Shown: one piece after another, positions 1 to 64,000 of the stretch
Numbering within the stretch: the first letter of the stretch is position 1
How the letters are laid out: the number at the start of each line of letters is the position of its first letter
Assembly (NCBI GenBank): GCA_965248925.1
Contig: CBDFLE010000004.1
Span: 160,001-224,000, forward strand
From: Candidatus Multivoradales bacterium
GTDB taxonomy: Bacteria; Acidobacteriota; Thermoanaerobaculia; Multivoradales; J023
Direction of reading: 5' to 3'
DNA: 64,000 nt
Notes under the pieces: generated by a model
What the model saw: the letters and a program-made list of their open reading frames with translations, nothing else
The model's database searches: none
What the model was told of the DNA's origin: nothing
Made by a program: the position numbers and the translations under genes

Positions 1-2561
1 CCGGCCGGCGCACCGCCGGCTGGCAAGTCCAGGATGCCGGCAACCAGCTGTTGCTCGGCGAAAGCCTGAGCTGGACCCCCGGCTCGCGGCTGGCCACCGC
101 CACCCGCACCGATTTGGGTGGCCTCACCCGTCGTTACGGCTACCAGGACGGTCGCTTGATCTCGGCCATCCAGACTGGCGGCCCGGCCTCCAGCGCCCCG
201 GCCGCCACCGGCTGGGCCGACGTGCCCGCGAGCTTCACCTACAGCTACGACCGAGCCCAGAATCTGCTGGGGATGGACTTCGCACAAAGCTGCGCAGCCA
301 CCCAGGTCGCCCTGCCGCTGGATGGCAGCGGCTGGAACCGCCCGGCTTCAGTAGCCGGCGAAGCGCTCCAGTGGACCGCTCGCCAGGAGCTGGCGAGCAA
401 AGGAAACTTCAACTTCACTTACAGCTGGGACCACCGTCCGATCGAACTCAGGCGCAACGGGGTGACGATCGCCTCCTACAAATACGACTCCCAGGGACGC
501 CGAGTCGAGCGCCAAGTCGGCGCCGACACCTACACCACCGTCTGGTCTGGCTGGCAGCCGATCGAAGAGTACAAGAACGGTCTATTGCACAGCCGCCGCA
601 CCTACGGCGTCGGTCTCGACGAACTTATTCGCCTCGAAAGCGACCTCGACGGCGACGGTGTCTTGGAGCAGGAATACCTACCCTTCTACGACACGATCGG
701 CAACCTCGTCCTACTCACCAACGAAGCCGGCAAGCCCATCGAACGCTACGCCTACGGCCCCTACGGCCGGCAGTGGATCGTCGCCGACTCGACCGCGCCG
801 GTAGTCGAGCAGATCCGCATGAAAGGCGACGAGCTGTGGCTCGAACTCTCAGAAGAAGTGCGGCTCGACCGCCTGCAAGCCGCCGCAAGTGCCGGCACGC
901 TGACGCTGGTCAACGCCCTCGGCGAAGAGATCAGCTTGCAGATCGAGCAGCCCGTCGACAACGGCCGCGCCGCCCGGCGGCGCGTGGTGCTGAGCGAGGC
1001 GCCGAGCCAGAATCCCCCACGCTGGCCAGCGGCGGGCGAGACTGCCACCCTGACTATCCCAGCCGGAGCCCTGGTCGACCTCTTCGAAAACAAAGGCGCG
1101 GCCGTGGCCGAAGCTATGACCTGGCCGACCATCGCGGACGAGATCCACAGCGACACCGCCCCTCCCCAGCTGCTCCAGGCTTGCGTCACACCGCAGAGAA
1201 AAGTCGAGCTGGACTTCAGCGAGCCCCTCGACGAAGCGACCCTCGACACCATCCAGCTCAACAGCGTGGCAACCACCTGGACCGTCTCCGCCGATGGCTA
1301 CCGCCTGACCAGCGGCGCCCTCGCGGTCGGCTCCAACACCCTGCTGGTAGACGGCGAACTGAAAGACCTCGCCGGCACCTCGCTAGCCGGCATCGTGAGC
1401 GAGATCTTCATCGTCAACCCAGGTCAGGGCACGATCATCCACAGCGCCCCCTACGCCGGGCAGATCTCCGCCTCGGCCACCGGTAACCCGTTTGGCTTCA
1501 AAGGCTTGCCGCGAGACCCGGAGAGTGGGCTGATCTATGTGCGCAACCGCTACTACGATCCAGAAATGGGTCGGTGGATCACCTCCGATCCACTGGGACT
1601 CGTCGATGGGCCGGGGCAGTATGCCTTTGTCGGCGGGGATCCGGTGAATTTTGGCGACCCGATGGGACTCTTCAATGTCGGGTTGGGGCCGTGTGGTGCA
1701 GTTGTAGATGCCGAGAGGCGAGCAGAGTGCCTGGCGAAGTCTCGGTTGGGGGCTCAGCAGTTTGACCAGGCTGTCACTACCGCGTTAGCCAATCCCTATG
1801 TACAGGGCAGCCTTCAAGTCATCGGTGGTTGTACCGAAGCGGTTGTCGGAGGTGCTGCCGTGCTCTCCGGCGCGGGGGTCTTGCCGGGTGCTGTCGCTCT
1901 TGCTCATGGCACCGATCTGTGCGGGACGGGAATCTCAACGCTCATCGTGGGCGAGACTCAGGAGACCCTCTTCTATCAGGGTGCAACAGCTGGCTTGGTG
2001 GCAAGCGGAGTCGATCCGTACTATGCTGGTTGGGCCGCGGCAGGGCTGGACCTTGGAGTCGGGATCGGCGCTACTCGGGCTGTTGGGCGCTCGTTTGCGC
2101 GGGCTGCGACCACTGGGACGGCAGCTAAGTCCCGAGTGCCGCGAGTGAACCTCGCAAATCCAGTAAATCCGCTATTTGACAGCGAGGACTTAGTCTACGG
2201 TCTGTACAGGGCGACAACACGAAGCAGAAGGAGCGGCCTCGCTACGTTCAATCCGACCTTGGATCTAAGGAATAGAGCGGGCGGTAGACTTTTGACTTCT
2301 TTCGACAAGCCACCGGAATTGGACTGGGTTCGATTCAGCATACTCAAAATGGACGAAGTGTTGGCAAGCGGAAGAAAGATTCGTTTTAACCTGAGCTACC
2401 TTGAGGATGTTGATAACCTAATTCTCGGCCAAGGGAGGTATGGTGCATCAATTACGGCCAGTGAGCTGCGGTACCTGCGAGATAATTGGGGACGGTTTGA
2501 GAACAACGTTGTTTTTTACAAGCACTATCGAGTGGTGAGGTCGCCATGGCAAGTTCAGTAG
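1..2561 (+). CDS. Rhs/YD-repeat polymorphic toxin A, 5'-partial (type II core); C-terminal toxin domain of unknown family
   Basis: The frame is open from the window start and near-identical to 34385-35990. It has YD repeats and the Rhs core RYYDPEMGRWITSDPLG...DPVNFGDPMG. GC drops after ~1670. A Gly/Ala-rich hydrophobic segment precedes a unique tip. Confidence 0.93.
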   Translation, partial: GRRTAGWQVQDAGNQLLLGESLSWTPGSRLATATRTDLGGLTRRYGYQDGRLISAIQTGGPASSAPAATGWADVPASFTYSYDRAQNLLGMDFAQSCAATQVALPLDGSGWNRPASVAGEALQWTARQELASKGNFNFTYSWDHRPIELRRNGVTIASYKYDSQGRRVERQVGADTYTTVWSGWQPIEEYKNGLLHSRRTYGVGLDELIRLESDLDGDGVLEQEYLPFYDTIGNLVLLTNEAGKPIERYAYGPYGRQWIVADSTAPVVEQIRMKGDELWLELSEEVRLDRLQAAASAGTLTLVNALGEEISLQIEQPVDNGRAARRRVVLSEAPSQNPPRWPAAGETATLTIPAGALVDLFENKGAAVAEAMTWPTIADEIHSDTAPPQLLQACVTPQRKVELDFSEPLDEATLDTIQLNSVATTWTVSADGYRLTSGALAVGSNTLLVDGELKDLAGTSLAGIVSEIFIVNPGQGTIIHSAPYAGQISASATGNPFGFKGLPRDPESGLIYVRNRYYDPEMGRWITSDPLGLVDGPGQYAFVGGDPVNFGDPMGLFNVGLGPCGAVVDAERRAECLAKSRLGAQQFDQAVTTALANPYVQGSLQVIGGCTEAVVGGAAVLSGAGVLPGAVALAHGTDLCGTGISTLIVGETQETLFYQGATAGLVASGVDPYYAGWAAAGLDLGVGIGATRAVGRSFARAATTGTAAKSRVPRVNLANPVNPLFDSEDLVYGLYRATTRSRRSGLATFNPTLDLRNRAGGRLLTSFDKPPELDWVRFSILKMDEVLASGRKIRFNLSYLEDVDNLILGQGRYGASITASELRYLRDNWGRFENNVVFYKHYRVVRSPWQVQ

Positions 2562-3028
2562 TTCTTCCGTTATCAGGCACTGGTTCGATTGAGCTTGTAG
2601 AACAGTGGGTTGATGGTAAAGAGAGAAGACCGCAGCGGTCAACTTACTTTGACTCCCATAGATTTAGAGACTGTGTCCTTTGGTCGGTTTCAGTGCGTTG
2701 CATTGATAGTGAAGTGCGACTGGGGAGTGCAAGTAGAGGTTCTTGGGTTTCTGCGTTCCGGTCCTTCGCGTCGAGCATCAATGCTCTGAAATTTAAGTTT
2801 GAGAAGTTTCTGGGGGAGAACGTCTACTTGTTACTATACCTACACGATGAGTGTGGGCCTTTCGCGAATCTCTATGTCGTTGAATACGGTCGGCGGCAGA
2901 TTGAACTTGGGTGGCAGGTTGGCACAGGTAAAATCGAGAGGAGCGGCATCGAGATTGATCGCGCATTGGTTGAAACTTGGCCGAGTCTTCTTCGAGTGTC
3001 CCGTCCGCCGCGTCCACAATCAGATTAG
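2546..3028 (+). CDS. Putative immunity protein for toxin A
   Basis: Small low-GC ORF overlapping the toxin stop. Its last ~10 codons (VSRPPRPQSD*) are supplied by the TGT repeat that starts at 2997. Confidence 0.75.
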   Translation: MASSVVLPLSGTGSIELVEQWVDGKERRPQRSTYFDSHRFRDCVLWSVSVRCIDSEVRLGSASRGSWVSAFRSFASSINALKFKFEKFLGENVYLLLYLHDECGPFANLYVVEYGRRQIELGWQVGTGKIERSGIEIDRALVETWPSLLRVSRPPRPQSD

Positions 3029-3207
3029 TAGCCAAACGGCCACTTTACTGGTCGCCGGCCCTCATTGATGGACCCGCTCCTTGTCGCTCCTCCTCAGCTC
3101 ACGCCGAGTCAGGAAATCCATGGAAACTTGCGGTGTCCCGTCCGCCGCGTCCACAGCCAAAATTTGTCCCGTCCGCCACGTCCACATGTCCCGTCCGCCG
3201 CGTCCAC
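2997..3207 (+). repeat. Cluster 1 of the TGTCCCGTCCGCCGCGTCCAC element-end motif (4 copies at 2997, 3134, 3165, 3187)
   Basis: Direct repeats read from the sequence. The 5' TGTCCC is invariant and the downstream flanks are truncated to different lengths. Confidence 0.95.
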
Positions 3208-3413
3208 GAACAGAATAGTGGCTAAAAGGCCACTTTATTGACCGTTTAGCCACGCCGGTAAGTCGGCACCGTGCCGATCATCCTCAGCGCATTCTGAAAA
3301 TCTTCCCAGTCGACCGCCCTCTTCGCTCACCGGCCGGAAATCGTGCCCCATGGTCGCACGTCACCGTGGACAGCGCGTCGCAGCAGCCCATCAACTCTCC
3401 AGCCTGAGCCGCT

Positions 3414-4328
3414 CTACTTGGGCGCATGGAAGCCAGAGAGCACTCCTTGCCAGGCGGTCATGAATCGTAGGTGCCCTCGTGAGGGCTGGCGGCCGGTCCA
3501 GATCTCTGCCGGTGTGCAGCCGTCGAGGTTCTGGTGCGGGCGCAGTTCGTTATACCAAAACCGGAAGACATCCAACTGTCGCTGGGTCTTGTGGCCCGCT
3601 GGCAGCGGCTCGCGCCGCCGCCGCAGGCGCTCTTTGAAGGTGCCGAAGAAGCGCTCGATACGTCCGTTCTGCCACGGCGAGGCCAGCTGGGTGCGCTGGT
3701 GGCGAATACCCAGTATGGCCAGCGAAAGCCGGAAGATCCAAGATGTAAAGACTGGCTCGTTGTCAGTGCGCAAGCACTTTGGCTTGCCGCATAGCTCGAT
3801 CGTGTCGAGCAGCTGGCGCACCAGTTCGACCGATGCTTTGGTCTTCACTGCTTGAAGGCTCAAGCAGAGCCGAGTGCCGTGGTCGAGCAGGCCGAAGATG
3901 GTTTCTTTCTGGCCGGCGGTGTTATCAGCGTAGGTGAGATCGGCGGCCCAGATCAGCCGCTTGCCGCCGATCCCAGGTTTTCTCCTGCGGATCTTCCGGC
4001 GCCAAGCGAGAATCTCCAGCTGGTGCTCGTTGAAGATCTTTGCAACGTAGCTCTTGCCCACCGTCATTCGGCGATGGCGGTAGTTGCGATTGAAGGCTGC
4101 CGCGATCGCCCTACAGCCATCGTCGGGCTGCAACGCCTTGAGCCGGATCACCGCTTGGCGCACCCACTTGGGCTTGCGCCGGCAGAAGCCGCGACAAGTC
4201 GTCGGGTCGGGTGGACACTTGGCTCGGCGGCGGTGCTTTGCTCTGGGTCGCAGGGCGAAGGAAGTGAGCGCAAGAATCAGAAGCAACACGAACGCCCAGA
4301 GAAGGGCGCCGGCAAGGTCGGAAGTCAT
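3414..4328 (-). CDS. rve/DDE integrase-core protein (IS481/IS3-like fold) with N-terminal hydrophobic helix, copy 1
   Basis: DDE triad motifs WAADLT, LRTDNEPVF and NGRIERFFGTFK; C-terminal WYNELRPHQNL; HTH-like region upstream. Four intact paralogs in the window. Confidence 0.92.
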   Translation of the reverse strand: MTSDLAGALLWAFVLLLILALTSFALRPRAKHRRRAKCPPDPTTCRGFCRRKPKWVRQAVIRLKALQPDDGCRAIAAAFNRNYRHRRMTVGKSYVAKIFNEHQLEILAWRRKIRRRKPGIGGKRLIWAADLTYADNTAGQKETIFGLLDHGTRLCLSLQAVKTKASVELVRQLLDTIELCGKPKCLRTDNEPVFTSWIFRLSLAILGIRHQRTQLASPWQNGRIERFFGTFKERLRRRREPLPAGHKTQRQLDVFRFWYNELRPHQNLDGCTPAEIWTGRQPSRGHLRFMTAWQGVLSGFHAPK

Positions 4329-4378
4329 TCCTTGAGAATACCGATCTGGCGCAGCCTAGCACGAGGCGCCGCGTTCTC

Positions 4379-4846
4379 TTACTGATCACCTCCCGAATGC
4401 CAGAAGCCCGGCTTGTGCAACTCCAGCACGAAGTCCACCTCGGCGGCCCTCGTCTCGTAGTCACGCCGCTCCTTCGCCGCCGCGATCCTGGCGGCGATCT
4501 CGCTGGCCAGGTGCTCTCCCTTGCCGGGTCGCGTCGGCAAGGCTTCTCTGGCCACATCGCGGAGGACTTGCTCCACCAGCGCCCGGTCCTTCTTCTTCGG
4601 GTCGCTAGCGTGGTTGAGAAACCACAGGATCAGCGCCGCGGGCTCGAGGAAACGGTGGTTGACCGCGGCCAGGAAGGCCGCAGTCAGCTCTTCGATCGGC
4701 GCGCCGGCAGAAAGCTTTATCTCGGCCAGGCTGTCGATGCTGGAATGATTGAGTCGCTGGTTGGCGCCGGTGATCTGAGCGGCGATCTGGCGTACTGTCT
4801 GGTGGATCTGTTCGGTGGTCATAGGCTTTCTGGACAGAGTGGCCAT
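4379..4846 (-). CDS. Conserved 155-aa hypothetical protein of the repeat unit, copy 1
   Basis: AGGAGG RBS upstream on the minus strand. Near-identical intact copies at 26751 and 60693. Confidence 0.8.
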   Translation of the reverse strand: MATLSRKPMTTEQIHQTVRQIAAQITGANQRLNHSSIDSLAEIKLSAGAPIEELTAAFLAAVNHRFLEPAALILWFLNHASDPKKKDRALVEQVLRDVAREALPTRPGKGEHLASEIAARIAAAKERRDYETRAAEVDFVLELHKPGFWHSGGDQ

Positions 4847-5071: not shown

Positions 5072-5180
5072 GGAGTCGCCGTGGTTGGGGAGGGACCACC
5101 ACGGCCATCACAGGGAATCCAGACCTCCTGACCTACCCCTCCTAACCCTCTGAAAACACAGGACCGCCCCTCAGAGGTGG

Positions 5181-5858
5181 TGCGGACCCAAAACTGTCCG
5201 CTCTTTTCGGTGCCGAGGCATGATCGAGCATGGCACTGACGAGCGAGCACACCGTCCTGTTCCCAGACCACGCCGGGGTCCCCGATGGGGTTGTGGTGAT
5301 CAACGACCGCTGCCGCCTCCAGCAGAGGGGCGGCTATCGGGTGGTGGTGGTCAGCGGCATGCCGCTCGCTCACTTCGCTGCCGGCGACAGGACAGGAGAG
5401 GCCCACGCGATGGTGAGTCTCGTTGAATTGGGCTGGGCACAGCAACGCGAGGTGGCCCTTGCGTTCGCTTGTGATGTGCGGACTGTGCGCCGGAATCAGC
5501 GCCGCTTCGAAGAAGGTGGGCTGGCTGCTCTGGGCCGGCCGCGCGGTTTTCCCCGGGGTCAGTCTCGGGTAGCGCAGGGCCGCCTGGACGCGGTCAACGG
5601 CTGGAAGGCCGAGGATGTGTCGAATCGCGAGATTGGCCGGCGGCTGGGCATCGATGAGAAGGCCGTTCGCAAGCTCGCCAAGCGCCTGGGCTGGAAAGAG
5701 CGGTCGGTAGTGCAGATGACGATGCCCTTCGAGAGTGCGGACCCAAAACTGTCCGCCTCTGATGAGCAGCAGGTCGACGGCCCCCTGAAAACTGCGGATC
5801 TTGCGCTCGACGCTGAGGGTGGCGGTGACCCAGCGGCTGCGGACCCAAAACTGTCCGC
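5181..5858. repeat. Three identical 21-bp copies of TGCGGACCCAAAACTGTCCGC (5181, 5736, 5838)
   Basis: Read directly. The arms GCGGAC/GTCCGC are inverted around an 8-nt spacer. Confidence 0.9.
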
Positions 5859-7623
5859 TTCTGCGTCCGAGCAAGATCAGGTTCCCCTCTCGCTGGACCT
5901 CGATCCAGCGGATCGCGCCAGCGATCGGCTGCTGGCGAGGCTGGGATTCCTCGATGATGCGGCGCCGATCTTCGGAGCGGCGACCCAGCTACCGGGCGCC
6001 GGTGCTCTGCTGGCGATTCCCGCCCTGGTGGACAGCGGCGTGCTCTCCATCGCGCAGGAGCTGTACGGCAGCATCGGGCCGGCCTTCTATGGGCTGCGCA
6101 CCACTCTGGTAACCCTGCTGCTGATGGCACTGTTGCGGGTCAAGCGACCCGAAGGGCTCAAGGAGCGCTCACCCCGGCATTTGGGTCAGCTTCTCGGGCT
6201 CGACCGAGCGCCGGAAGTGAAAACCTTGCGCAACAAGCTCGCTCGGCTGGCCGCGCATGGCCTGGCCGCGGATCTCGGTCGCGCCCTCGCTCAGCGCCGG
6301 GTCGCCACCAGGGGCCATGCCATGGGCTTCCTCTACGTGGACGGGCATGTGCGCGCCTACCACGGTGGCCGAGAGATTCCCAAGACACACGTAGCGCGGA
6401 TGCGGATCGCGATGCCGGCCACCACCGACTACTGGGTCAACGATGCTGAGAGCGAGCCTCTCTTCGTGGTCCCCACCGAGGCCAACAAGGGGCTTGCGAC
6501 GATGCTTCCCCTCATTCTCGAAGAGGTACGAAAGCTACTCGGAGACCGGCGAGTCACCGTCGTCTTCGACCGTGGGGGTTGGAGCCCGAAGCTGTTTGCG
6601 AAGCTCATCGCCAAGAAGTTCGACATCCTCACATACCGAAAGGCCCCCTTTCGTCCGGTGCCGTTGAGCAAGTTCGGGCAGATCAAGGACACCATCCACG
6701 GGCGGAAGCTCGAGTACCTCCTCGCCGATCAGCGTATCTACCTCGAGTATGGCCCGAGGAAGAAGCGCAAGCGGCTGTACCTGCGCCAGGTCACCCGCCT
6801 CTGCGACAACGGCCACCAGACGTCCATCATCACCTCCCGCCGCGACCTCTCCACACTCGAGGTCGCCTACCGCATGTTCGATCGTTGGAGGCAAGAGAAC
6901 TTCTTCAAATACCTGCGCGAAGAATTCGCACTCGATGCCCTGGTGGACTATGGCACCGAGCCAGCGGACGCCGCCCGCGATGTGCCGAATCCCGAGCGCG
7001 GCAAGATCAATGCAGAGCTGCGCAAAGCTCACGCACATCTCGAGCAGCTCCGGGCCCACATCGGGATCGCTGCTCTTGAAAACCGCGAGGATCGGCGGCG
7101 CACGATGCGCGGATTCAAGATCGCCAACGCCGCCATCTCCGCCAGGGTCCGGGCAGCGATAGAGCAGATCACCGAACTCGAGAACCAGCGCGCGACCCTC
7201 CCCGTCCGCGTCCCCGTCCAAGAGGTCGTCGAAGCGGATGTCATCAAGCTGTCCGTCGAGCGCAAGCACCTCACCGATATTCTCAAGATGGTCGCCTACC
7301 AGGCCGAAGGTGATCTTCTCCGGCTCCTATCACCCCACTACCGCCGCACCGAGCAGGAGGGACGCACCCTGATCCAAAGCGCTTTCGCGGCCGGCGGCGA
7401 TATGGAGGTTACCGACACCGTGCTGCTCCTTTCCATCGACCCGCTCAGCTCTCCCCACAAGACGGCGGCGATCGCCGCCGTCTGCGAAGAACTCAACGCT
7501 ACCGCCACCCACTTCCCCGGCACCGAGCTACGGATGCGGTTCGCGATCAAGAAGGCGCCACCCCGGAGCCTGGCCTTCCCAGGGCCTCGGAACACCTCCG
7601 GAGGGGCTCAACCGGACATTTGA
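5230..7623 (+). CDS. 797-aa DDE transposase with N-terminal HTH domains
   Basis: Motifs FLYVDGH, VVFDRGG and RWRQENFFKY; two HTH-like segments (QQREVALAFACDVRTVRR; SNREIGRRLGIDEKAVRK). The ORF fills the IR-bounded element. Confidence 0.9.
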   Translation: MALTSEHTVLFPDHAGVPDGVVVINDRCRLQQRGGYRVVVVSGMPLAHFAAGDRTGEAHAMVSLVELGWAQQREVALAFACDVRTVRRNQRRFEEGGLAALGRPRGFPRGQSRVAQGRLDAVNGWKAEDVSNREIGRRLGIDEKAVRKLAKRLGWKERSVVQMTMPFESADPKLSASDEQQVDGPLKTADLALDAEGGGDPAAADPKLSASASEQDQVPLSLDLDPADRASDRLLARLGFLDDAAPIFGAATQLPGAGALLAIPALVDSGVLSIAQELYGSIGPAFYGLRTTLVTLLLMALLRVKRPEGLKERSPRHLGQLLGLDRAPEVKTLRNKLARLAAHGLAADLGRALAQRRVATRGHAMGFLYVDGHVRAYHGGREIPKTHVARMRIAMPATTDYWVNDAESEPLFVVPTEANKGLATMLPLILEEVRKLLGDRRVTVVFDRGGWSPKLFAKLIAKKFDILTYRKAPFRPVPLSKFGQIKDTIHGRKLEYLLADQRIYLEYGPRKKRKRLYLRQVTRLCDNGHQTSIITSRRDLSTLEVAYRMFDRWRQENFFKYLREEFALDALVDYGTEPADAARDVPNPERGKINAELRKAHAHLEQLRAHIGIAALENREDRRRTMRGFKIANAAISARVRAAIEQITELENQRATLPVRVPVQEVVEADVIKLSVERKHLTDILKMVAYQAEGDLLRLLSPHYRRTEQEGRTLIQSAFAAGGDMEVTDTVLLLSIDPLSSPHKTAAIAAVCEELNATATHFPGTELRMRFAIKKAPPRSLAFPGPRNTSGGAQPDI

Positions 7624-7913
7624 GAAAAAGGGTATGTCAGGAGTTCTGGACTCAGGGAGCGAGCGAGGTCGAAGTCCGCCGGCCGCAGACGGGCCGGCGC
7701 CGCCGGCCCGATCCGTACCGAGACCCAGCGGCCGACCATTGCGGCTCTGGGTTCTAGGTTGGTGAGTTCACCGCGATAGAACACCCACTCGACGAAGATC
7801 AGAGAATCGCGCCAAGAATCAAAGAGATATTTGCGGGTGATCTTTTGTTGCCCTTTGATTTGTCGCCAATCGGGTAGGGTGTTTAGGGCCTGTTGGATCT
7901 CTTCGTCGGTCAT
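7608..7913 (-). CDS. PCD/DCoH-fold protein 1, C-terminal tail replaced by IS sequence
   Basis: The pattern EEIQQALNTLPDW...ITRKYLFDSWRDSLIFV...DFDLARSL resembles pterin-4a-carbinolamine dehydratase but lacks the HHP histidines. The original tail is at 5017-5119. Confidence 0.7.
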   Translation of the reverse strand: MTDEEIQQALNTLPDWRQIKGQQKITRKYLFDSWRDSLIFVEWVFYRGELTNLEPRAAMVGRWVSVRIGPAAPARLRPADFDLARSLSPELLTYPFSQMSG

Positions 7914-8196: not shown

Positions 8197-9534
8197 ATGT
8201 TTGGCGAATCAGCGAGCGAGCAGCACCAGCGATGCCTACAAACGCTGAAGGCCCATGTGCGACGGCATCCGATGTCGGTAAGGGAGATCGAGCGGCGCCT
8301 GGGATATTCTCCGTCCTACTTGCACCGGATCCTTCGTGGCAAAGTAGGGTTGTCGTTTGAGGGCTTGTTGCAGCTGCTCGAAGTCGTGGATATGAGCTTC
8401 GAGGAGCTGGCGATCAAGACGGCGCGAGTGGATGCTGAGGGATTGTTGGAGAGGGCCTTACCTCCGGGCACGGTAGATCCGCCAGAGATTGAGGAGCTGG
8501 CGTTGATAGCCAGTCAGCTCATCGTCGGCGAGTATACTGACAAGGTCCACGATTCGGCATGCCAGGCACTGTTCCAGGCGGTGAGGGATGCTGATGATCA
8601 GCGTTACTCGGCCCCATGGCTAGCTGCCGCGAAGGTGCGCCCAATAGCAACTCATGTTGCTCCTAGAATAGCTGGAATAGTGGCGTTGGAGCTCTTCTGC
8701 CGAGCGACCAGCGTCTACGGGTCTTGCTGCCGCATCGGTGGAAGCGTTCAGCACGCGATCCGTACCCTGATCACTACCAGCCAGCTCGCTCGGTCGTGCG
8801 GGTCGAGTCATCGGGCGGACTGGCTTCTTCGTGCTGCGTCAGCCTTGAATAGTCACAGTGAGCATGATGCCGGTCTGGAAGTCGCTATCGTAGCTGGGGA
8901 GATTTTTGAGAGATTGGGCGACAGTGCGGGCGTAGGCTCGTCTTTCATCAGCAAAGCGATTTCGATGACACTTATACCGGACAGCGAGCGAGCCGAGGCG
9001 GCCTTTCGCACAGCGCTTCTTCATATTCCACTGAATGGGCATTCACGTCTGCTGATAGCAGCGCATCACGGTTTGGCGAAGCTTCTAGTCGAACGGGAGG
9101 ACTTAGAGCAGGCGGGTTCCCACCTTGAAATAGTGTCATCGAAGATTTATAAGTCGGACACCTATAGTCGGGGAATGTTGGCCAGAACCTTAGGTAACTG
9201 GCATAGGAAGAAGGGACACAGGGAAGAGGCGATAGAGAACCTACGGCAAGCGGAGGGTTTCTTTCTTGAGATCAATCCCTTCGACACGGCGTTTGTCGTG
9301 CTGGACCAGATCGATTTCTGTTTGGAAGATGGCCGACTCCAAGAGGCGGTCAGAATCGCGGAAGACACGGCCGATGTGATCGAGCTACTCAAATCGAATC
9401 CGGTCGCTGGTGGCATTCTCATGAGACTACGAGACGCTGCCCAGAAGGGAAGGTTGACTGCTCGGCTGATTGAAGCTGCTCGTAAGAAGATAGCCGGCGG
9501 GCGCCGGTTCGGAATCCGCCCGCCGGTAGCCTAG
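8197..9534 (+). CDS. XRE-type HTH + TPR-like transcriptional regulator, copy 1
   Basis: N-terminal MSVREIERRLGYSPSYLHRILRG HTH; helical TPR-like repeats (AEAAFRTAL, AHHGLAKLL, EEAIENLRQA); GGAGGGAG RBS. Confidence 0.85.
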   Translation: MFGESASEQHQRCLQTLKAHVRRHPMSVREIERRLGYSPSYLHRILRGKVGLSFEGLLQLLEVVDMSFEELAIKTARVDAEGLLERALPPGTVDPPEIEELALIASQLIVGEYTDKVHDSACQALFQAVRDADDQRYSAPWLAAAKVRPIATHVAPRIAGIVALELFCRATSVYGSCCRIGGSVQHAIRTLITTSQLARSCGSSHRADWLLRAASALNSHSEHDAGLEVAIVAGEIFERLGDSAGVGSSFISKAISMTLIPDSERAEAAFRTALLHIPLNGHSRLLIAAHHGLAKLLVEREDLEQAGSHLEIVSSKIYKSDTYSRGMLARTLGNWHRKKGHREEAIENLRQAEGFFLEINPFDTAFVVLDQIDFCLEDGRLQEAVRIAEDTADVIELLKSNPVAGGILMRLRDAAQKGRLTARLIEAARKKIAGGRRFGIRPPVA

Positions 9535-25073: not shown

Positions 25074-25075
25074 AG

Positions 25076-27381: not shown

Positions 27382-27388
27382 TTTGAGG

Positions 27389-58976: not shown

Positions 58977-59433
58977 ATTAAGGAATTGTATTCATGTTGT
59001 TGAGTCATTGACTCTGGGTATTGCTATATTCCTTATTGTCGAGGCTTGTGCAGTTACCGGAGAGTGTTTGATCTCTGAAGGCGAGATTTCGTCGTATCAG
59101 AGGTTAATTGTTCGACCAGAGAACTCTGGTGATTTCTACCGGGTAGTCGGGATTTACCGTGGTGGGTTTGAGACTTCTGTAGTTACCCTGTTCCTTGATG
59201 AGGATCTGAGTTTGTTGAATTTGGACTATAGCGGGTCTATGGCGTATTGCGTTAGAGTCAGAGACTCTTGTGAATCGGTGTTTTACGAAGGACTCTCTGG
59301 CAACGTGGAGGCGTCATTCGACTACCCATTCTATGGCAAGGTCGATTTGCTGGTTCGCTTTGAAGGGGAGTCTAGCGATTTAGACTGTCGGTCTGGCAGA
59401 TTGACCGTGTTGCGAATTCACGAAATGCATTGA
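58969..59433 (+). CDS. Putative exported immunity protein for toxin D
   Basis: ATG overlaps the toxin end; hydrophobic LTLGIAIFLIVEAC segment; low GC. Confidence 0.78.
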   Translation: MSRLRNCIHVVESLTLGIAIFLIVEACAVTGECLISEGEISSYQRLIVRPENSGDFYRVVGIYRGGFETSVVTLFLDEDLSLLNLDYSGSMAYCVRVRDSCESVFYEGLSGNVEASFDYPFYGKVDLLVRFEGESSDLDCRSGRLTVLRIHEMH

Positions 59434-59442: not shown

Positions 59443-59521
59443 TGTCCCGTCCGCGTGTCCCGTCCGCGGCGTCCACGATCAAAATCGTAGCCAAACGGCC
59501 TGTCCCGTCCGCGGCGTCCGC
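59443..59521 (+). repeat. Cluster 4 of the TGT element-end motif (13-nt copy at 59443, full copies at 59456 and 59501; GCGG variant)
   Basis: Starts 9 nt after the immunity stop. Confidence 0.95.
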
Positions 59522-59727
59522 GAACGAAATAGTGGCTAAAAGGCCACTTTATTAGCCGTCTAGCCTCGCCGGTAAGCCGGCACCGTGCCGATCATCCTCA
59601 GCTCATTCTGAAAATCTTCCCAGCCGACCGCCATCTTCGCTCACCGGCCGGAAATCGTGCCCCATGGTCGCACCTCACCGTGGACAGCGCGTCGCAGCAG
59701 CCCATCAACTCGCCAGCCCGAACCGCT

Positions 59728-60642
59728 CTACTTGGGCGCATAGAAGCCAGAGAGCACTCCTTGCCAGGCGGTCATGAATCGTAGGTGCCCTCGTGAGGGC
59801 TGGCGGCCGGTCCATATCTCTGCCGGTGTGCAGCCGTCGAGGTTCTGATGCGGGCGCAGTTCGTTATACCAAAACCGGAAGACATCCAGCTGCCTCTGGG
59901 CCTTGCGGCCCGCTGGCAGCGACTCGCACCGCCGCCGCAGGCGCTCTTTGAAAGTGCCGAAGAAGCGCTCGATTCGGCCGTTCTGCCAGGGCGAGGCCAG
60001 TTGCGTTCGCTGATGGCGGATGCCCAGCAGGGCCAGCGAGAGCCGGAAGATCCACGAGGTGAAGACAGGCTCGTTGTCAGTGCGCAAGCACTTTGGCTTG
60101 CCGCAGAACTCGATCGCGTCGAGCAGCTGGCGCACCAGTTCGACCGAGGCTTTGGTCTTGACAACTTGAAGGCACAAGCAGAGCCGAGTGCCGTGATCCA
60201 GCAGGCCGAGAATCATCTCTTTCTTGCTGGCGGTGTTGTCAGCGTAGGTGAGATCGGCGGCCCAGATCAGCCGCTTGCCGCCGATCCCAGGTTTTCTCCT
60301 GCGGATCTTCCGGCGCCAAGCGAGAATCTCCAGCTGGTGCTCGTTGAAGATCTTTGCAACGTAGCTCTTGCCCACCGTCATTCGGCGATGGCGGTAGTTG
60401 CGATTGAAGGCTGCCGCGATCGCCCTACAGCCATCGTCAGGCTGCAACGCCTTGAGCCGGATCACCGCTTGGGGCACCCACTTGGGCTTGCGCCGGCAGA
60501 AGCCGCGATAAGTCGTTGGGTCGGGTGGACACTTGGCTCGGCGGCGGTGCTTCGCCCTGGGTTGCAGGGCGAGCGAAGTGAGCGCAAGAATCAGAAGTAA
60601 CATGAAGGCACAGAGCAGGGCGCCGGCAAGATCAGAAGTCAT
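59728..60642 (-). CDS. rve/DDE integrase with N-terminal hydrophobic helix, copy 4
   Basis: DDE motifs intact. Confidence 0.92.
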   Translation of the reverse strand: MTSDLAGALLCAFMLLLILALTSLALQPRAKHRRRAKCPPDPTTYRGFCRRKPKWVPQAVIRLKALQPDDGCRAIAAAFNRNYRHRRMTVGKSYVAKIFNEHQLEILAWRRKIRRRKPGIGGKRLIWAADLTYADNTASKKEMILGLLDHGTRLCLCLQVVKTKASVELVRQLLDAIEFCGKPKCLRTDNEPVFTSWIFRLSLALLGIRHQRTQLASPWQNGRIERFFGTFKERLRRRCESLPAGRKAQRQLDVFRFWYNELRPHQNLDGCTPAEIWTGRQPSRGHLRFMTAWQGVLSGFYAPK

Positions 60643-60692
60643 TCCTTGAGAATACCGATCTCACGCAGCCTAGCCCGAGGTGCCGCGCTGCC

Positions 60693-61160
60693 TCACGTAT
60701 CACCTCCCGAATGCCAGAAGCCCGGCTTGTGCAACTCCAGCACGAAGTCCACCTCGGCGGCCCTCGTCTCGTAGTCACGCCGCTCCTTCGCCGCCGCGAT
60801 CCTGGCGGCGATCTCGCTGGCCAGGTGCTCTCCCTTGCCGGGTCGCGTCGGCAAGGCTTCTCTGGCCACATCGCGGAGGACTTGCTCCACCAGCGCCCGG
60901 TCCTTCTTCTTCGGGTCGCTAGCGTGGTTGAGAAACCACAGGATCAGCGCCGCGGGCTCGAGGAAGCGGTGGTTGACCGCGGCCAGGAAGGCCGCGGTCA
61001 GCTCTTCGATCGGTGCGCTGGCAGAAAGCTTAATCTCAGCCAGGCTGTCGATGCTGGAATGATTGAGTCGCTGGTTGGCGCCGGTGATCTGAGCGGCGAT
61101 CTGGCGTACTGTCTGGTGGATCTGTTCGGTGGTCATAGGCTTTCTGGACAGAGTGGCCAT
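60693..61160 (-). CDS. Conserved 155-aa hypothetical protein, copy 4
   Basis: Intact paralog with an AGGAGG RBS. Confidence 0.8.
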   Translation of the reverse strand: MATLSRKPMTTEQIHQTVRQIAAQITGANQRLNHSSIDSLAEIKLSASAPIEELTAAFLAAVNHRFLEPAALILWFLNHASDPKKKDRALVEQVLRDVAREALPTRPGKGEHLASEIAARIAAAKERRDYETRAAEVDFVLELHKPGFWHSGGDT

Positions 61161-61185
61161 TCTGGTGTTCCTCCTAGGTGATCTA

Positions 61186-61491
61186 TTATTGGCGGATATT
61201 GACGCCGAAGCCGATGGCCATGGTTTCGATGGCTTGGGCCAGGGCGATGTGTTGCTCGGTGAGTTCGGCCTCCGGCGTGGCGGGCAACTTGAGGGTCAGC
61301 AAAGTGCCTCGTAGATGAACTTCGATCGTTGCCCTCTGACACACCACGAAAGCCAGGAGCTGGCGCAGGAACCGGTAGGCGGCGGGGAAGTCGACGAACT
61401 CTAGCCGCTGGGCAATAACTTGTGGATTGTCTTCGCTCTGGCGCCAATGTACTAGCCGCCCTAGCCCGAGCTGAATTCGTTCGGGTTTCAT
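61186..61491 (-). CDS. PCD/DCoH-fold protein 2 (the only intact copy)
   Basis: AAGGAG RBS. The pattern W...IAQRLEFVDFPAAYRFL...ELTEQHIALAQAIE resembles PCD but has no HHP motif. Confidence 0.75.
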   Translation of the reverse strand: MKPERIQLGLGRLVHWRQSEDNPQVIAQRLEFVDFPAAYRFLRQLLAFVVCQRATIEVHLRGTLLTLKLPATPEAELTEQHIALAQAIETMAIGFGVNIRQ

Positions 61492-61509
61492 TCACAATAC
61501 TCCTTGAGG

Positions 61510-61872
61510 TCACGGTTCAAGAAAAAGCACCCTCCGGGCAGCAGGGGCTGATTCTGCCCGGAGGGGAGTCGCCGTGGTTGGGGAGGGACCACCACGGCCA
61601 TCACAGGGACTCAGGGAGCGAGCGAGGTCGAAATCTTCCGGCCGCAGACGGGCCGGCGCCGCCGGCCCGATCCGTACCGAGACCCAGCGGCCGACCATCG
61701 CGGCTCTGGGTTCTAGGTTGGTGAGTTCACCGCGATAGAACACCCACTCGACGAAGATCAGAGAATCGCGCCAAGAATCAAAGAGATATTTGCGGGTGAT
61801 CTTTTGTTGCCCTTTGATTTGTCGCCAAACGGGTAGGGCACTCAGGGCCTGTTGGATCTCTTCGTCGGTCAT
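61510..61872 (-). CDS. PCD/DCoH-fold protein 1, copy 4
   Basis: Intact paralog. Confidence 0.75.
   Translation of the reverse strand: MTDEEIQQALSALPVWRQIKGQQKITRKYLFDSWRDSLIFVEWVFYRGELTNLEPRAAMVGRWVSVRIGPAAPARLRPEDFDLARSLSPCDGRGGPSPTTATPLRAESAPAARRVLFLEP
61519..61564 (-). terminator. Candidate intrinsic terminator/attenuator
   Basis: 11-bp GC stem plus a U-tract on the minus strand. Confidence 0.5.
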
Positions 61873-62155: not shown

Positions 62156-63499
62156 ATGTTTGGCGAATCAGCGAGCGAGCAGCACCAGCGATGCCTAGAA
62201 ACGCTGAAGGCCCATGTGCGACGGCATCCGATGTCGGTAAGGGAGATCGAGCGGCGCCTGGGATATTCTCCGTCCTACTTGCACCGGATCCTTCGTGGCA
62301 AAGTAGGGTTGTCGTTTGAGGGCTTGTTGCAGCTGCTCGAAGTGGTGGATATGAGCTTCGAGGAGCTGGCGATCAAGACGGCGCGAGTGGATGCCGAGGG
62401 ATTGTTGGAGAGAGCCTTACCTCCGGGCACGGTAGATCCGCCAGAAATTGAGCAGTTGTCGTTAGTAGCAACTCAGCTCATCGAAGGTGATCTTGTTAGA
62501 ACAGCACCCGATTCAGCATGTCAGGCGCTATTTCAGGCGGTGAGTGAAGCTGATGAGCAGCGCTACTCGGACCCCTGGTTAGCCGCTGAAAAGGCGTGGT
62601 CAATCGCAGCTTGTGTAGCGCCTAGAATAGCCGGCAGATCGGCGCTGGAACTCTGCTGTGGAGCGATCAGTGTTTACGGGTCTTGCTGCCGAATCGGCGG
62701 AGCTGCTCAGCACGCGATTCGCGCGTTGATTTCTGTTAGCCAGCTCGTTCGATCGTGCGGGCTGAGCCATCGGGCGGATTGGCTTCTTCGGGCCGCCTCG
62801 GCATTGAATAGTCACGGTGAGCATGAAGCTGGGCTGGAACTCGGCATTGTGGCTGGAGAGATCTTCGAGAGGTTGGGGGACAGTGCGGGTGTAGGCTCGG
62901 CTCTCATCAGCAAGGCTATCTCGATGGTCTTCTTGAAGGACAATGAGCGAGCGGCGACGACCTTCCACTCTGCGCTTCTTCATATTCCGTCGAAGGGCTA
63001 TTCTCGTCGGCTGATGGCAGCTCATCATGGTCTGGCGAAGTTGCTGGTCGAGCAAGGGGATTTGGAGGAGGCTAGATCACATATTGTGTCTGCATCGTCA
63101 GAGGTCCAAGCGTCGGACACCTACAGTCGAGGCATGCTGGCCCGGACCATGGGCAACTGGCATTGGAAGAAAGGACATAGGGAAGAGGCAATAGAGGATT
63201 TGCGCTCAGCGGAGAAGTGCCTTGTGGAGATCAATCCCTTCGATACGGCTTTTGTCGTACTCGACCAGATCGGGTTCTGCCTGGAAATTGGCCGACTCCA
63301 GGAAGCGATCAAGGCTGCCGAGGAAACGTCCGACCTGATCGAGCTGTTCAAGTCCAATCCGATGGCAGGTGGCATTCTTTTGAGGCTTCGAGACGCTGCC
63401 CAGAGGGGAAGGCTGAGCATGCGTCTGATTGAGATCGCCCGGAGAAGGATGGCCGGCAGGCGGCCTTTCGGAATCCGCCCGCCGGCAACATTTAATTAG
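62156..63499 (+). CDS. XRE-HTH + TPR-like regulator, copy 4
   Basis: Near-identical to copy 3 for the first ~180 aa, then diverges. Confidence 0.85.
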   Translation: MFGESASEQHQRCLETLKAHVRRHPMSVREIERRLGYSPSYLHRILRGKVGLSFEGLLQLLEVVDMSFEELAIKTARVDAEGLLERALPPGTVDPPEIEQLSLVATQLIEGDLVRTAPDSACQALFQAVSEADEQRYSDPWLAAEKAWSIAACVAPRIAGRSALELCCGAISVYGSCCRIGGAAQHAIRALISVSQLVRSCGLSHRADWLLRAASALNSHGEHEAGLELGIVAGEIFERLGDSAGVGSALISKAISMVFLKDNERAATTFHSALLHIPSKGYSRRLMAAHHGLAKLLVEQGDLEEARSHIVSASSEVQASDTYSRGMLARTMGNWHWKKGHREEAIEDLRSAEKCLVEINPFDTAFVVLDQIGFCLEIGRLQEAIKAAEETSDLIELFKSNPMAGGILLRLRDAAQRGRLSMRLIEIARRRMAGRRPFGIRPPATFN

Positions 63500-63826
63500 C
63501 CGCTGGGATCGATGGATCCACCGTATTGCGGCCCTACTGGCTTGGTTTCTAACATCTGATTTCTCCCTTGAAGTGCGAGCAAGCTGGGCCACTTAATTGC
63601 GCCCGCTGCCCGCTACAGGCCCAAGCTACAGCGCTTCCCAAACAGATCCTTTGGTTGAATGCTCATCAGAGGGCGATGGAGGCCGTGAACACGGCTTGAG
63701 TGCGAGTAGATTCAAAGCGCTCGTAGACTGTTTAGGGCTAGTGAGTAGCTCCGTGCGAGGCCCGCCGAAGGGTGCTTCTCTTGCGTTTTGGGCAGCAGAA
63801 CCTCTGTCATTCAGTGATCTGAGGGG

Positions 63827-63896
63827 AAACGGTTCATTTCGAGCTTGCACAAATGAACCGTTTGGTCTCAGCGGTGGACTTGCCTACAGTCTTCCG
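63827..63896 (+). promoter_or_regulatory. Palindrome and candidate leaderless promoter of rhs E
   Basis: Matches 9866-9935. Confidence 0.65.
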
Positions 63897-64000
63897 ATGC
63901 CAAAACAGCTATCTCTGCGCTCTCTCCTCGTCCTCCAAGCCTCTCTCGGTGCCCTCCTACTGTCGGCGAGCGCCGCTCAAGCGGCGCCTGCCTTTATCTC
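63897..64000 (+). CDS. Start of a fifth giant Rhs gene (3'-partial, signal peptide only)
   Basis: MPKQLSLRSLLVLQASLGALLLSASAAQAAP matches the N-termini of toxins B and D. Confidence 0.88.
   Translation, partial: MPKQLSLRSLLVLQASLGALLLSASAAQAAPAFI

Follow-up and report, generated by a model that had tools for sequence, protein, structure and literature searches.

The window (the whole 64,000-nucleotide stretch that was analysed) is a slice of an array which, on the array map, comprises 13 Rhs genes or fragments on a single strand over ~200 kb of an 8 Mb host genome (62% G+C). The features of the window are listed below with coordinates and strand.

3..2561 (+): 3' part of the preceding unit's Rhs gene, open at the window start; DPxGL at nt 1587 and 1656, then tip
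2546..3028 (+): 160-aa ORF after tip 0, putative immunity gene, no family match; its final 32 nt lie inside the first TGT end copy
2997..3207 (+): unit-1 TGT end cluster; three truncated copies, 112 bp (2997-3108), 31 bp (3134) and 22 bp (3165), then the complete end at 3187
3187..4370 (−): integrase element of unit 1, ~1.2 kb; outer end precise at 3187, then a 227-bp non-coding stretch before the integrase gene (3414-4328); inner boundary approximate, placed by analogy with other genomes
4379..4846 (−): 155-aa ORF of unit 1, part of the PCD/regulator module and not of the integrase element
5115..7647 (+): secondary multicopy IS in unit 1; 797-aa Transposase_29 protein at 5230-7623; 31 genome copies
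7608..7913 (−): PCD-fold (Pterin_4a) gene of unit 1
8197..9534 (+): XRE-type HTH and TPR regulator of unit 1
9936..25073 (+): Rhs1, 5,045 aa; N-terminal Ig-like repeats, RHS repeats, DPLGL at nt 24267, Amidase_2 tip
25064..25537 (+): 157-aa ORF after tip 1, putative immunity gene; stops 5 nt short of the TGT end
25542..26745 (−): unit-2 TGT ends (17-bp stub at 25542, full end at 25559) and integrase element; gene 25786-26700
26751..27871 (−): 155-aa ORF (26751-27218) and PCD-fold gene (27389-27871) of unit 2
28029..29360 (+): divergent paralog of the XRE-TPR regulator, in unit 2
29464..36942 (+): Rhs2, 2,492 aa; DUF6531, RHS repeats, DPLGL at nt 35971
36942..37256 (+): 104-aa ORF after tip 2, putative immunity gene; the TGT end copy supplies its stop codon
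37222..38485 (−): unit-3 TGT ends (76-bp stub at 37222, full end at 37298) and integrase element; gene 37525-38439
38573..41473 (+): secondary IS21 in unit 3 (istA 38787-40361, istB 40121-41119); the 155-aa ORF is largely lost through this insertion
41665..43647: PCD-fold gene (41665-42027, −) and XRE-TPR regulator (42310-43647, +) of unit 3
44049..58976 (+): Rhs3, 4,975 aa; DNA 93.7% identical to Rhs1 until nt 58069, tip unrelated
58795..59433 (+): ORF overlapping the Rhs3 end and reaching the TGT cluster, putative immunity gene; start uncertain, no family match
59443..60690 (−): unit-4 TGT ends (stubs at 59443 and 59456, full end at 59501) and integrase element; gene 59728-60642
60693..61872 (−): 155-aa ORF (60693-61160) and two intact PCD-fold genes (61186-61491, 61510-61872) of unit 4
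62156..63499 (+): XRE-TPR regulator of unit 4
63897..64000 (+): 5' part of the following giant Rhs gene, cut by the window end; full product 5,114 aa

Repeat units of the array

The same order recurs four times: TGT cluster, rve integrase (−), 155-aa ORF (−), PCD-fold gene or genes (−), XRE-TPR regulator (+), Rhs (+) and small ORF (+). The initial annotation, made from the letters of the window, had proposed such a recurrence at 2997, 25542, 37222 and 59443, and this was confirmed by the four motif clusters and by self-BLAST, in which the repeats start at 3133/3165/3187, 25542/25559, 37298 and 59455/59501. It was also right to begin a fifth rhs at 63897, which matches position 9936 (homology of 9822-10039 to 63783-64000). 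Its unit length of ~20 kb has to be revised, as the unit starts lie 22,372, 11,739 and 22,203 bp apart and a unit measures ~22 kb with a long Rhs gene or 11.7 kb with a short one. The repeated chassis is real but was described as near-identical, which overstates it: DNA identity among window units is 78-97% (94.8% between the Rhs core stretches 1-1613 and 34385-35997), the regulator of unit 2 has 38% protein identity to that of unit 1 and Rhs2 is without the N-terminal ~2,550 residues. Two PCD-fold genes per unit hold for unit 4 but not for the other window units, in which the second gene is not whole.

Each unit consists of two parts that differ in origin, a Rhs locus typical of the host genome and a single-gene integrase element of ~1.2 kb that follows the small ORF directly. 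The 155-aa, PCD and XRE-TPR genes are present at other Rhs loci of the host genome without the integrase and are therefore placed outside the integrase element, which limits the support for a single integrase-regulator-Rhs system. Across the array there are nine intact, one frameshifted and two truncated integrase copies. The array is mostly a series of complete loci that each have their own regulator, orphans being in the minority, and two orphan Rhs fragments in it reflect plain internal deletion with a breakpoint that is not at an element end. Unequal homologous recombination of entire loci is the simplest account of the array. The Rhs regions of the host genome also carry other IS copies.

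The TGT end and the variable cassettes

A search of the window for the 21-nt TGT motif TGTCCCGTCCGCCGCGTCCAC, tolerating up to 3 mismatches, gave 10 matches against 0.01 expected by chance, all on the + strand and in four clusters (2997/3134/3165/3187, 25542/25559, 37222/37298 and 59456/59501); a further 10-mer TGT copy (up to 1 mismatch) lies at 59443. Genome-wide there are 27 copies of the motif, on one strand and with none inverted. The motif is the single conserved precise end of the integrase element (...GGACGGGACA), which on the integrase strand reads ...YGGACRnnnYGGACGGGACA-3', and past ...GGGACA the sequence is unrelated from locus to locus. Among relatives of the integrase the end motif was found at +100..+700 in 59/72 loci as against 4/70 in the upstream control, in keeping with the TG(T)-starting motif that had been predicted for the junction. 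A DDE enzyme normally requires two like ends. An inverted partner of the end, sought upstream in 58 loci, was not found (best match 13.4/24 nt versus 13.8 in the control), nor was one present in the whole host genome, and paired inverted repeats are thus lacking in both. Element copies within one genome delimit a unit of 1.16-1.25 kb whose left and right termini differ, a dissimilarity that speaks against a role in exchange.

Unrelatedness between units is limited to tip and immunity gene: the four variable segments (1614-3132, 23948-25541, 35998-37297 and 58070-59454) have no mutual match by BLAST except for 24073-24246 with 58132-58305 (84%). The variable block runs from the end of the Rhs core to the first TGT end and is base-exact at the TGT side, as the initial annotation had suggested. 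Its description of the toxin and immunity tips as unrelated applies between units, this 84% stretch apart, but the unit-2 cassette recurs elsewhere in the genome, on another contig, at 99.9% identity. Each of the end stubs (17, 22, 31, 45, 76, 112 and 496 bp) breaks off where the next exact TGT begins, and the one at 2997-3108 has a sequence of the unit-2/3 type and lies ahead of a unit-1/4-type element. A tract of 9.7 kb with 99.6% identity (window 27380-37071 = C5:51432-61123, C5 being a second contig) stops exactly at the TGT end, beyond which identity falls to about 92%; the C5 copy has its TGT end 150 bp further into the cassette than the window copy does. Nested truncated ends together with one cassette joined at two positions show that precise end-joining has been repeated: many joining events, at various positions, have placed the end within earlier copies of its own end region and, in one case, within a putative immunity ORF. 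Alternatively, the nested ends could have arisen if a complete IS had inserted, in the ordinary manner, into copies of itself and homologous deletion had followed.

The same tract bears on the trustworthiness of the assembly, since 9.7 kb at 99.6% identity is common to two units and the assembly breaks within the array (contig C4 ends and C5 begins inside Rhs genes), as might be expected if dispersed Rhs loci had been collapsed or chained into a false tandem array. We regard this as highly improbable, because the window units differ by 3-22% and have unique IS insertions and unique cassettes, each junction is continuous sequence with its own end-stub pattern, and comparable arrays occur in independent assemblies, one of them a complete chromosome.

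The integrase and its relatives

The integrase is a 304-aa rve-type DDE protein (Pfam rve_3, 58.4 bits versus a cut-off of 26.5) in which D130, D189 and E225 are conserved in 12/12 sequences; among 48 sequences D130 and D189 are invariant and E225 is at least 90% conserved. Its AF2 model (pLDDT 88.9) has an RNase H-like core, with retroviral integrases and TnsB as the best PDB matches. Like IS481 and IS3 elements it has a single protein of ~300 aa that combines a helix-turn-helix-like region, an rve/RNase H core bearing a DDE triad and a small beta domain at the C-terminus, an element length of about 1.2 kb and a terminus ...CA-3' (TGT... on the other strand). Unlike them, it scores below the NCBI family cut-offs (IS481, 108 bits versus 224; IS3, 94 versus 160), its element is without a detected terminal inverted repeat, a hydrophobic N-terminal helix is predicted in 34/48 family members (the host protein being predicted to bear an N-terminal membrane helix), and the host copies are diverged, selected and restricted to toxin arrays in the host genome. 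The nine intact copies are maintained by purifying selection, dN/dS among them being 0.19 while dS reaches 0.28. Where the databases give a name it is 'integrase core domain-containing protein', 'transposase InsO family protein' or 'putative transposase'.

The closest relatives of the integrase are in Thermoanaerobaculia (Acidobacteriota), and the element is a member of an unnamed family spread over several phyla. Neighbouring genes were surveyed at the best-scoring 80 of 305 relatives, which are not a random sample, and 62 of these genome_contigs loci were usable, having at least 1.5 kb of contig downstream. In this best-scoring set a convergent toxin gene lies within 4 kb in 28/62 loci (Rhs in 17, CdiA-like in 11) and a same-strand Rhs/CdiA-like gene within 4 kb downstream in 0/62, which agrees with the prediction that homologs would sit convergently behind toxin genes. 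Upstream, again among the best 80, Rhs/CdiA genes occur in 11/61 loci and are on the opposite strand in all 11; where there is no convergent Rhs/CdiA gene within 4 kb, the strands of the first large downstream ORF split 17:11. The remaining 34/62 loci of the set have no recognisable Rhs or CdiA gene, and many housekeeping Pfam families (GcpE, Lon, HSP70 and DXP synthase, for example) are found among their neighbour ORFs; toxin loci are thus not the only sites of the element. In 4/8 regions from relative genomes all of the large ORFs scanned (7/7) carry RHS repeats, with the integrase convergent behind. In the host genome a convergent Rhs gene lies beyond the 3' end of 11/12 integrase copies versus 1/31 for each of two abundant IS families, although the first figure overstates the case as copies within one array are not independent. 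In an integrase tree (quick version only) the sequences cluster mostly according to host taxon, and at least three switches between Rhs and CdiA fall on well-supported branches; a plasmid search found an integrase homolog in 1/72,556 plasmids.

These data bear on two further explanations. In the first the element is a selfish IS481/IS3-like IS with a degenerate left end, hitch-hiking behind toxin cassettes with no role in their exchange; it would prefer its own end or dispensable DNA after immunity genes and then be copied with the Rhs units. We consider this possible but rather doubtful. The precise, transposon-like end, the first 10 nt of which are those of the inverted repeats tabulated for ISPa57 in PMC7378034, the standard DDE protein, the loci of the best-scoring set that have no toxin gene and in some cases have housekeeping neighbours, and the presence of other IS copies in the Rhs regions are all consistent with it, and nested ends fit self-targeted insertion and later deletion. 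Against it are the failure to find an inverted partner in 58 loci or in the whole host genome and the invariant orientation of toxin genes in the best-scoring set (28/28 convergent downstream and 11/11 opposite upstream, other genes being mixed), as well as the age of the integrase copies, which are nevertheless intact and under selection, whereas the two multicopy IS families of the host are near-identical and dispersed. The near absence of the family from plasmids and a tree that mostly tracks host taxa argue in the same direction.

The second explanation, which we judge improbable, is that an IS remnant behind one ancestral Rhs locus was amplified by unequal crossing-over, the integrase being inactive and irrelevant and the tips being replaced via classical homologous recombination or C-terminal displacement. 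Repetition of whole units, regulator and full-length Rhs included, the 9.7-kb tract shared by two of them, the orphan fragments from internal deletion and the decay of some integrase copies would all be accounted for, but the low dN/dS of the intact copies would not, and stubs of another sequence type and differing junction positions need repeated exact-end joining rather than one ancestral insertion. The same arrangement is also seen in unrelated genomes, with CdiA in place of Rhs in some, and this cross-phylum recurrence makes such a relic unlikely as an explanation by itself.

A possible role in cassette exchange and comparison with known systems

The reading that we favour, at about even confidence, is of a Rhs locus joined by a one-ended integrase element with a putative role in cassette exchange and unit rearrangement. 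The earlier idea of a cassette-shuffling unit is thus partly supported, and its dedicated DDE enzyme setting the right boundary finds support in that the end is a real joining point (stubs, two-position cassette) but sits less well with the toxin-free loci (34/62 in the best-scoring 80 of 305 relatives). As about half of the integrase family is outside toxin loci, the shuffling mechanism is one that we infer. The array would grow and shrink by unequal homologous recombination between repeated units. The integrase may cleave its own ...ACA-3' end, the presumed substrate being DNA ending ...GGACnnnnnGGACGGGACA, and join it behind an immunity gene or into the end of another copy; such end transfer could couple or uncouple cassettes and chassis, or delete units. 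The element would also be a portable right-hand homology arm and, with the Rhs core as the left arm, the tip and immunity block would thereby be exchangeable by recombination. An integrase element at cassette ends may in this way help to explain the exchange of Rhs/CdiA toxin cassettes.

H-rpt belongs to the ISAs1 family, from which the present integrase differs in matching rve and not an ISAs1-type protein. In the passages available from PMC3032704, H-rpt of the E. coli Rhs loci is IS-like, with a DDE-type ORF behind Rhs C-terminal tips, and its transposition was not observed; the present element is likewise a DDE-type IS-like unit lodged behind Rhs tips. In the present case, however, every cassette has an element of its own, CdiA genes are accompanied by the family as well, the end shows conservation across phyla and orientation is tightly fixed. 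According to the available parts of earlier work, Rhs tips vary past the core end, orphan modules of core fragment, tip and immunity gene lie downstream, and exchange is attributed to recombination in the Rhs core (Jackson 2009; Poole 2011; Koskiniemi 2014). The window shares with these C-terminal displacement systems the conserved core-end motif (DPxGL) before the tip. As set out in those parts, the displacement and orphan models do not call for a dedicated enzyme or specify where the cassette ends on the right, whereas here the right boundary is marked by a precise transposon-type end accompanied by an integrase of its own, and the host array, unlike orphan cassette arrays, is mostly complete loci. 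Integrase-like genes also repeatedly adjoin Rhs in the bee-gut bacteria Snodgrassella and Gilliamella, where a 'Rhs-associated integrase' was suggested to aid transfer or capture of Rhs sequences; the available passages (Steele et al. 2017, PMC5727410) assign those genes to no family, set out neither an end sequence nor a rule of orientation and include no survey across phyla, and the likeness to the present system lies in the repeated placement beside Rhs. No published description of a one-ended integrase element tied to Rhs/CdiA cassettes was found.

Integrons have a recombination enzyme beside an array of exchangeable cassettes, and ISEcp1-type IS have one dominant end and are associated with adjacent genes; both are functional analogies only. 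The host system differs from integrons in being without a tyrosine recombinase or attC-like sites and in having one integrase per cassette, not per array, and from both integrons and ISEcp1-type IS in that the cassette is located beyond the element end rather than within the element.

Organization of the array and of its units

Both the ORF listing and the self-comparison of the window bore out the recurring gene order described in the initial annotation, with repeat families beginning at 3187, 25559, 37298 and 59501 (spacings of 22,372, 11,739 and 22,203 bp). The 21-nt end motif TGTCCCGTCCGCCGCGTCCAC has 10 matches in the window at up to 3 mismatches (chance expectation 0.01), in four clusters and all on the + strand, and each of its 27 copies genome-wide lies on the strand of the array. 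Mapping of contig C4 outside the window (C4:160001-224000) and of the beginning of contig C5 showed the units to belong to a tandem array of 13 Rhs genes or fragments on a single strand, from C4:147397 to C5:64082. We infer that the C4 and C5 ends abut because both fall inside Rhs genes, and provided that they do the array is about 200 kb long. It contains 12 copies of the integrase (nine intact, one frameshifted and two truncated), and two degenerate copies adjoin another Rhs array, whose Rhs genes of about 3,550 aa lie at contig ends (C5:2318242-2357353 and C6:5202499-5214744), the assembly having probably broken within these repeats. That the tandem array is itself an artefact of assembly is very unlikely, given the sequences specific to each unit. 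Two very large ORFs unlabelled by the Rhs reference set immediately precede giant Rhs genes in the same orientation: one of 4,727 aa (C4:133194-147377) the first giant Rhs gene, and one of 1,658 aa (C5:16044-21020) another. Two of the units have been interrupted by later insertions:

5115-7647, Transposase_29 IS of 2.5 kb encoding a 797-aa protein (PF21804)
38573-41473, IS21, in the second of the two interrupted units

The Transposase_29 IS has 31 copies in the genome, 98-100% identical and spread over C5 and C6, and looks recently active, in contrast to the diverged integrase copies.

The Rhs proteins of 5,045, 2,492 and 4,975 aa carry Ig-like repeats, DUF6531 and RHS repeats (Pfam/NCBIfam), the RHS/YD repeat core matching PF05593 with E values of 9e-65 and 2.5e-62. 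The motif expected at the end of the core (PxxxxDPxGL) is represented by DPxGL in the Rhs protein that is open at the window start (R0) and in those of units 1 and 2, and by DSLGL at the aligned place in that of unit 3. Similarity between units ends near DPxGL and returns exactly at the first TGT motif, and the unrelated blocks therefore consist only of the tip and the small ORF that follows each tip. Thus the tip and putative immunity pairs are indeed unrelated between units and bounded by the Rhs core on the left and the TGT motif on the right, as had been proposed. Tip 1 is an Amidase_2 domain; the domain search gave no family match for the other tips, nor did the small ORFs match any family in Pfam/NCBIfam. 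The rest of the locus (the chassis) is repeated between units at 78-97% identity and not, as first described, near-identical; of the two PCD genes attributed to each unit the second is whole in unit 4 only.

By Pfam/NCBIfam the remaining parts of the unit are the 304-aa integrase (rve_3/rve), Pterin_4a (PCD-fold) genes and HTH_31/HTH_3 plus TPR (XRE-TPR) regulators. The 155-aa ORF has no Pfam or NCBIfam family, and an atlas search gave only weak unnamed matches. As further Rhs loci in the genome have PCD genes, the 155-aa ORF and XRE-TPR regulators but no integrase, these genes are part of the Rhs locus and not of the integrase element. Pterin_4a gene pairs with a 155-aa-like ORF and an XRE-TPR gene were seen beside many other Rhs genes of the genome, sometimes co-directional with Rhs, and constitute a putative Rhs-linked accessory or regulatory module; examples lie at:

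C6:4910543-4919000, accessory module beside an Rhs gene
C6:1046875-1056000, accessory module beside an Rhs gene
C6:4661000-4664400, accessory module beside an Rhs gene
C5:1076500-1079300, accessory module beside an Rhs gene

The possibility that the 155-aa ORF is an IS3-like OrfA was rejected, since paralogs 37-41% identical to it accompany PCD genes at integrase-free loci. An ORF of 156 aa (4397-4867, + strand) is nearly coextensive with that of 155 aa (4379-4846, − strand) on the opposite strand; it was the minus-strand product that, as query, found the distant paralogs. A junction at the equivalent of window position 4492 in two units was considered as a left end of the element and rejected, being a plain deletion that fuses the 155-aa ORF to the Rhs core.

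The integrase and its single conserved end

The 304-aa protein matches PF13683 (rve_3) with 58.4 bits, above the cut-off of 26.5, which places it in the rve DDE superfamily, and PF00665 (rve) with 29.4 bits, just under the cut-off of 32.6. Scores against the IS481 model (NF033577, 108.4 bits) and the IS3 model (NF033516, 94.2 bits, the match being restricted to the model's C-terminal two thirds) fall below the respective cut-offs of 224 (equivalog) and 160, so that it is assigned to neither family; where homologs are named at all in public records they are called 'integrase core domain-containing protein', 'transposase InsO family protein' or 'putative transposase'. The DDE triad (D130, D189 and E225) is kept in 12 of 12 aligned homologs, and among 48 homologs both aspartates are invariant and the glutamate is at least 90% conserved. 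In the AF2 model (pLDDT 88.9) residues 2-26 form an N-terminal helix, 54-115 a helical, DNA-binding-like region and 126-262 an RNase H-like core, with a small beta domain in addition; the model's top Foldseek matches in the PDB are retroviral integrases (intasomes) and TnsB. In 34 of the 48 homologs a 19-residue N-terminal window has a mean hydropathy of at least 1.6, followed in most by basic residues, which suggests that the helix may be a membrane anchor; a membrane-anchored DDE integrase, if that is what it is, would be unusual.

4194-4328, − strand, hydrophobic N-terminal helix (integrase residues 1-45)

From copies within single genomes (three in the relative G009, four in a complete Nitrincola chromosome, and those of one Thermoanaerobaculia MAG) the element could be defined as a unit of 1.16-1.25 kb made up of the gene, 40-60 bp 5′ of its start codon and a tail of about 230 bp that closes precisely in ...GGACGGGACA, the left terminus being approximate. 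Among the best 80 of 305 relatives, retrieved with the family alignment, the end motif (no more than one mismatch) is present at +100 to +700 in 59 of the 72 loci with at least 400 bp downstream, and in two or more copies in 10 of these 59, as against 4 of 70 loci for an upstream control region searched on either strand; the expectation that the right junction bears a motif starting TG(T) is thus upheld. In an alignment anchored at the end the last 20 nt have the consensus YGGACRnnnYGGACGGGACA, with two sub-repeats that covary (for example GAAC...GAAC in three Rheinheimera/Chromatiaceae loci, L065, L068 and L078), and the DNA past the final A is unrelated from locus to locus. The stop of the next convergent ORF lies at a median distance of 93.5 nt from the end (56 loci), a descriptive value not used as evidence. 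About 25 nt inward from the end is a conserved hairpin that resembles a terminator of the integrase gene, and no Rfam family was found in the window at gathering thresholds that would make the 230-bp tail an RNA element. The terminal octamer ACGGGACA is repeated in tandem, up to four times, past the end in the Nitrincola locus (L024, about 11150-11200 and 2520-2560).

The main rival explanation for these observations, which we regard as a real but lesser possibility, treats the element as a selfish IS hitch-hiking in toxin loci. A table in PMC7378034 lists for ISPa57 inverted repeats that start with the same ten bases as the end, and this likeness hints at a conventional IS relative. Against a selfish IS stands the absence of the terminal inverted repeats of a classical IS: the 21-nt end has no inverted copy in the window or in the 8-Mb genome, for 58 homologs the best inverted match within 700 bp upstream is 13.4 of 24 nt (control, 13.8), the sequences upstream of the integrase homologs show no enriched 8-mer, and the left termini of the G009 and Nitrincola copies are unlike the right end. 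Nor are the copies near-identical and dispersed as in a classical IS, being confined to Rhs arrays; the nine intact copies differ by a dS of up to 0.28 with a dN/dS of 0.19 and are therefore old and under purifying selection, unlike freshly transposed IS copies.

Junctions at the end

Full ends are preceded by truncated copies (stubs) of 17, 22, 31, 45, 76 and 112 bp, and of 496 bp on C5, each of which starts at an exact TGT and breaks off where the next one begins. The 112-bp stub (2997-3108) is of the unit-2/3 sequence type (90% identity) and lies ahead of an element of the unit-1/4 type, the two types being only about 80% alike in the stub region; since stub and element differ in type, cassette and chassis have recombined at the end. 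Another junction is provided by a 9.7-kb tract (27380-37071, and C5:51432-61123) containing the regulator, the Rhs gene of unit 2, its tip and part of the small ORF, which is 99.6% identical between the two copies and ends exactly where the TGT end starts, identity past that point being about 92%. In the C5 copy the end lies 150 bp deeper and cuts the small ORF by about 50 codons (C5:60994-61130, compared with 36942-37256 in the window), and in the window copy the TGT end itself supplies the stop codon of the small ORF. If the small ORF encodes the immunity protein, the C5 unit would depend on the copy in the window. A precise end with variable partners is what would be expected of a terminus processed by a transposase. 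The pattern would be no different if a complete element had inserted into its own kind and homologous deletion had followed.

Toxin loci in other genomes and the possible role of the element

Large ORFs were scanned in four of the eight regions fetched from relatives; all seven of these ORFs carry RHS repeats, and in each of the four regions the integrase is convergent behind an RHS-repeat protein. In G009 the succession Rhs fragment, small ORF, end and integrase occurs three times in a row. In the source genome itself 11 of the 12 integrase copies have a convergent Rhs gene within 4 kb of the 3′ end (copies that are not independent of one another), compared with 1 of 31 copies in each of two abundant dispersed IS families. 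The wider claim that integrase homologs lie convergently behind toxin genes proved true of 28 of the 62 loci (from the best 80 of 305 relatives) with at least 1.5 kb downstream, 17 having a convergent Rhs ORF and 11 a convergent filamentous-haemagglutinin/CdiA-like ORF within 4 kb; at the other 34 no Rhs or CdiA gene was found. In none of the 62 was such an ORF on the integrase strand downstream. Upstream, an Rhs/CdiA-like ORF is present in 11 of 61 loci; its strand is the opposite one in every case, and seven of the 11 lie 38-190 bp away, as in orphan arrays. This fixed geometry is seen in Acidobacteriota, Nitrospirota and Pseudomonadota, cultured isolates among them. Cultured carriers of the family include isolates of Rheinheimera, Nitrincola, Limnohabitans and Cellvibrio. 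At the 34 loci with no recognised Rhs or CdiA gene Pfam searches of 29 and 103 neighbouring ORFs gave RTX repeats in four, Tox-REase-7 once and many housekeeping families; there the first large ORF downstream is on one strand in 17 cases and on the other in 11, so that the orientation rule is specific to toxin contexts.

The many non-toxin loci are what a selfish IS would lead one to expect, but it is disfavoured by the invariant orientation to toxins, by the scarcity of the family on plasmids (a homolog on 1 of 72,556) and by a host-congruent tree, the integrases clustering largely by host taxon in a quick tree in which Rhs- and CdiA-linked members are intermixed and supported branches force at least three changes. 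That the element is a mere relic of duplication we consider distinctly unlikely, as this leaves its recurrence in other phyla and with CdiA unexplained.

The acquisition, swapping and amplification of toxin tips and immunity genes are ascribed to homologous recombination in the conserved core, and we know of no dedicated machinery or defined right-hand boundary described for tip exchange. The best-supported reading, to which we give an even chance as a whole, is that unequal homologous recombination of complete Rhs loci built the array, that the unit of toxin variation has the Rhs core as its left boundary and a one-ended DDE element as its right one, and that this element comes from a widespread family whose association with polymorphic toxin cassettes is strong and oriented; the integrase may actively couple, uncouple or mobilise cassettes. 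More tentatively, and in our view with a good deal less probability, the family could be an undescribed class of mobile or domesticated, membrane-anchored, one-ended DDE elements specialised on polymorphic-toxin loci across bacterial phyla. The integrase of such a class would cut at the one conserved end and attach this end downstream of immunity genes, making enzyme-delimited exchangeable modules of Rhs/CdiA tip and immunity cassettes, and would be a transposase-based counterpart of the integron for interbacterial toxins that drives the expansion and contraction of giant arrays. Integrons themselves differ in having a tyrosine-recombinase integrase instead of a DDE integrase, and attI/attC sites where the repeated site here is a transposon-type end and not an attC-like palindrome. 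H-rpt/ISAs1-type elements have an ISAs1-type (DDE_Tnp_1-like) transposase, whereas the 304-aa protein matches only rve, IS481, IS3 and ISNCY in Pfam and NCBIfam. Conserved integrase family, synthesisable 20-nt end and fixed toxin geometry together make a testable candidate machinery. Should the enzyme act on the ends, this would explain the rapid diversification of interbacterial weapons, and an element with asymmetric ends and a predicted membrane anchor would be an unusual addition to the DDE elements; even if the enzyme proves not to do so, the family remains useful in genome annotation for marking cassette boundaries.

A search of full article texts returned no description of the integrase family, its end or its context. 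The only near precedent found is a remark by Steele et al. (2017; PMC5727410) on 'Rhs-associated integrase' genes in bee-gut bacteria, whose role is left open there. The E. coli W genome paper states that H-repeat elements accompany Rhs tips and that their transposition has not been observed, and passages of a 2026 Stenotrophomonas preprint mention, purely as indications of horizontal acquisition, integrases and tRNA genes that flank some of the vgrG6 clusters. The word 'integrase' is absent from the first 300,000 characters of the 2012 polymorphic-toxin survey (PMC3482391). The one plasmid homolog (locus L101) is convergent with a hypothetical protein gene and a gene of about 38.8 kb for a 'tandem-95 repeat protein':

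127727-168629, Undibacterium sp. YM2 plasmid pUYM01, locus of the plasmid homolog
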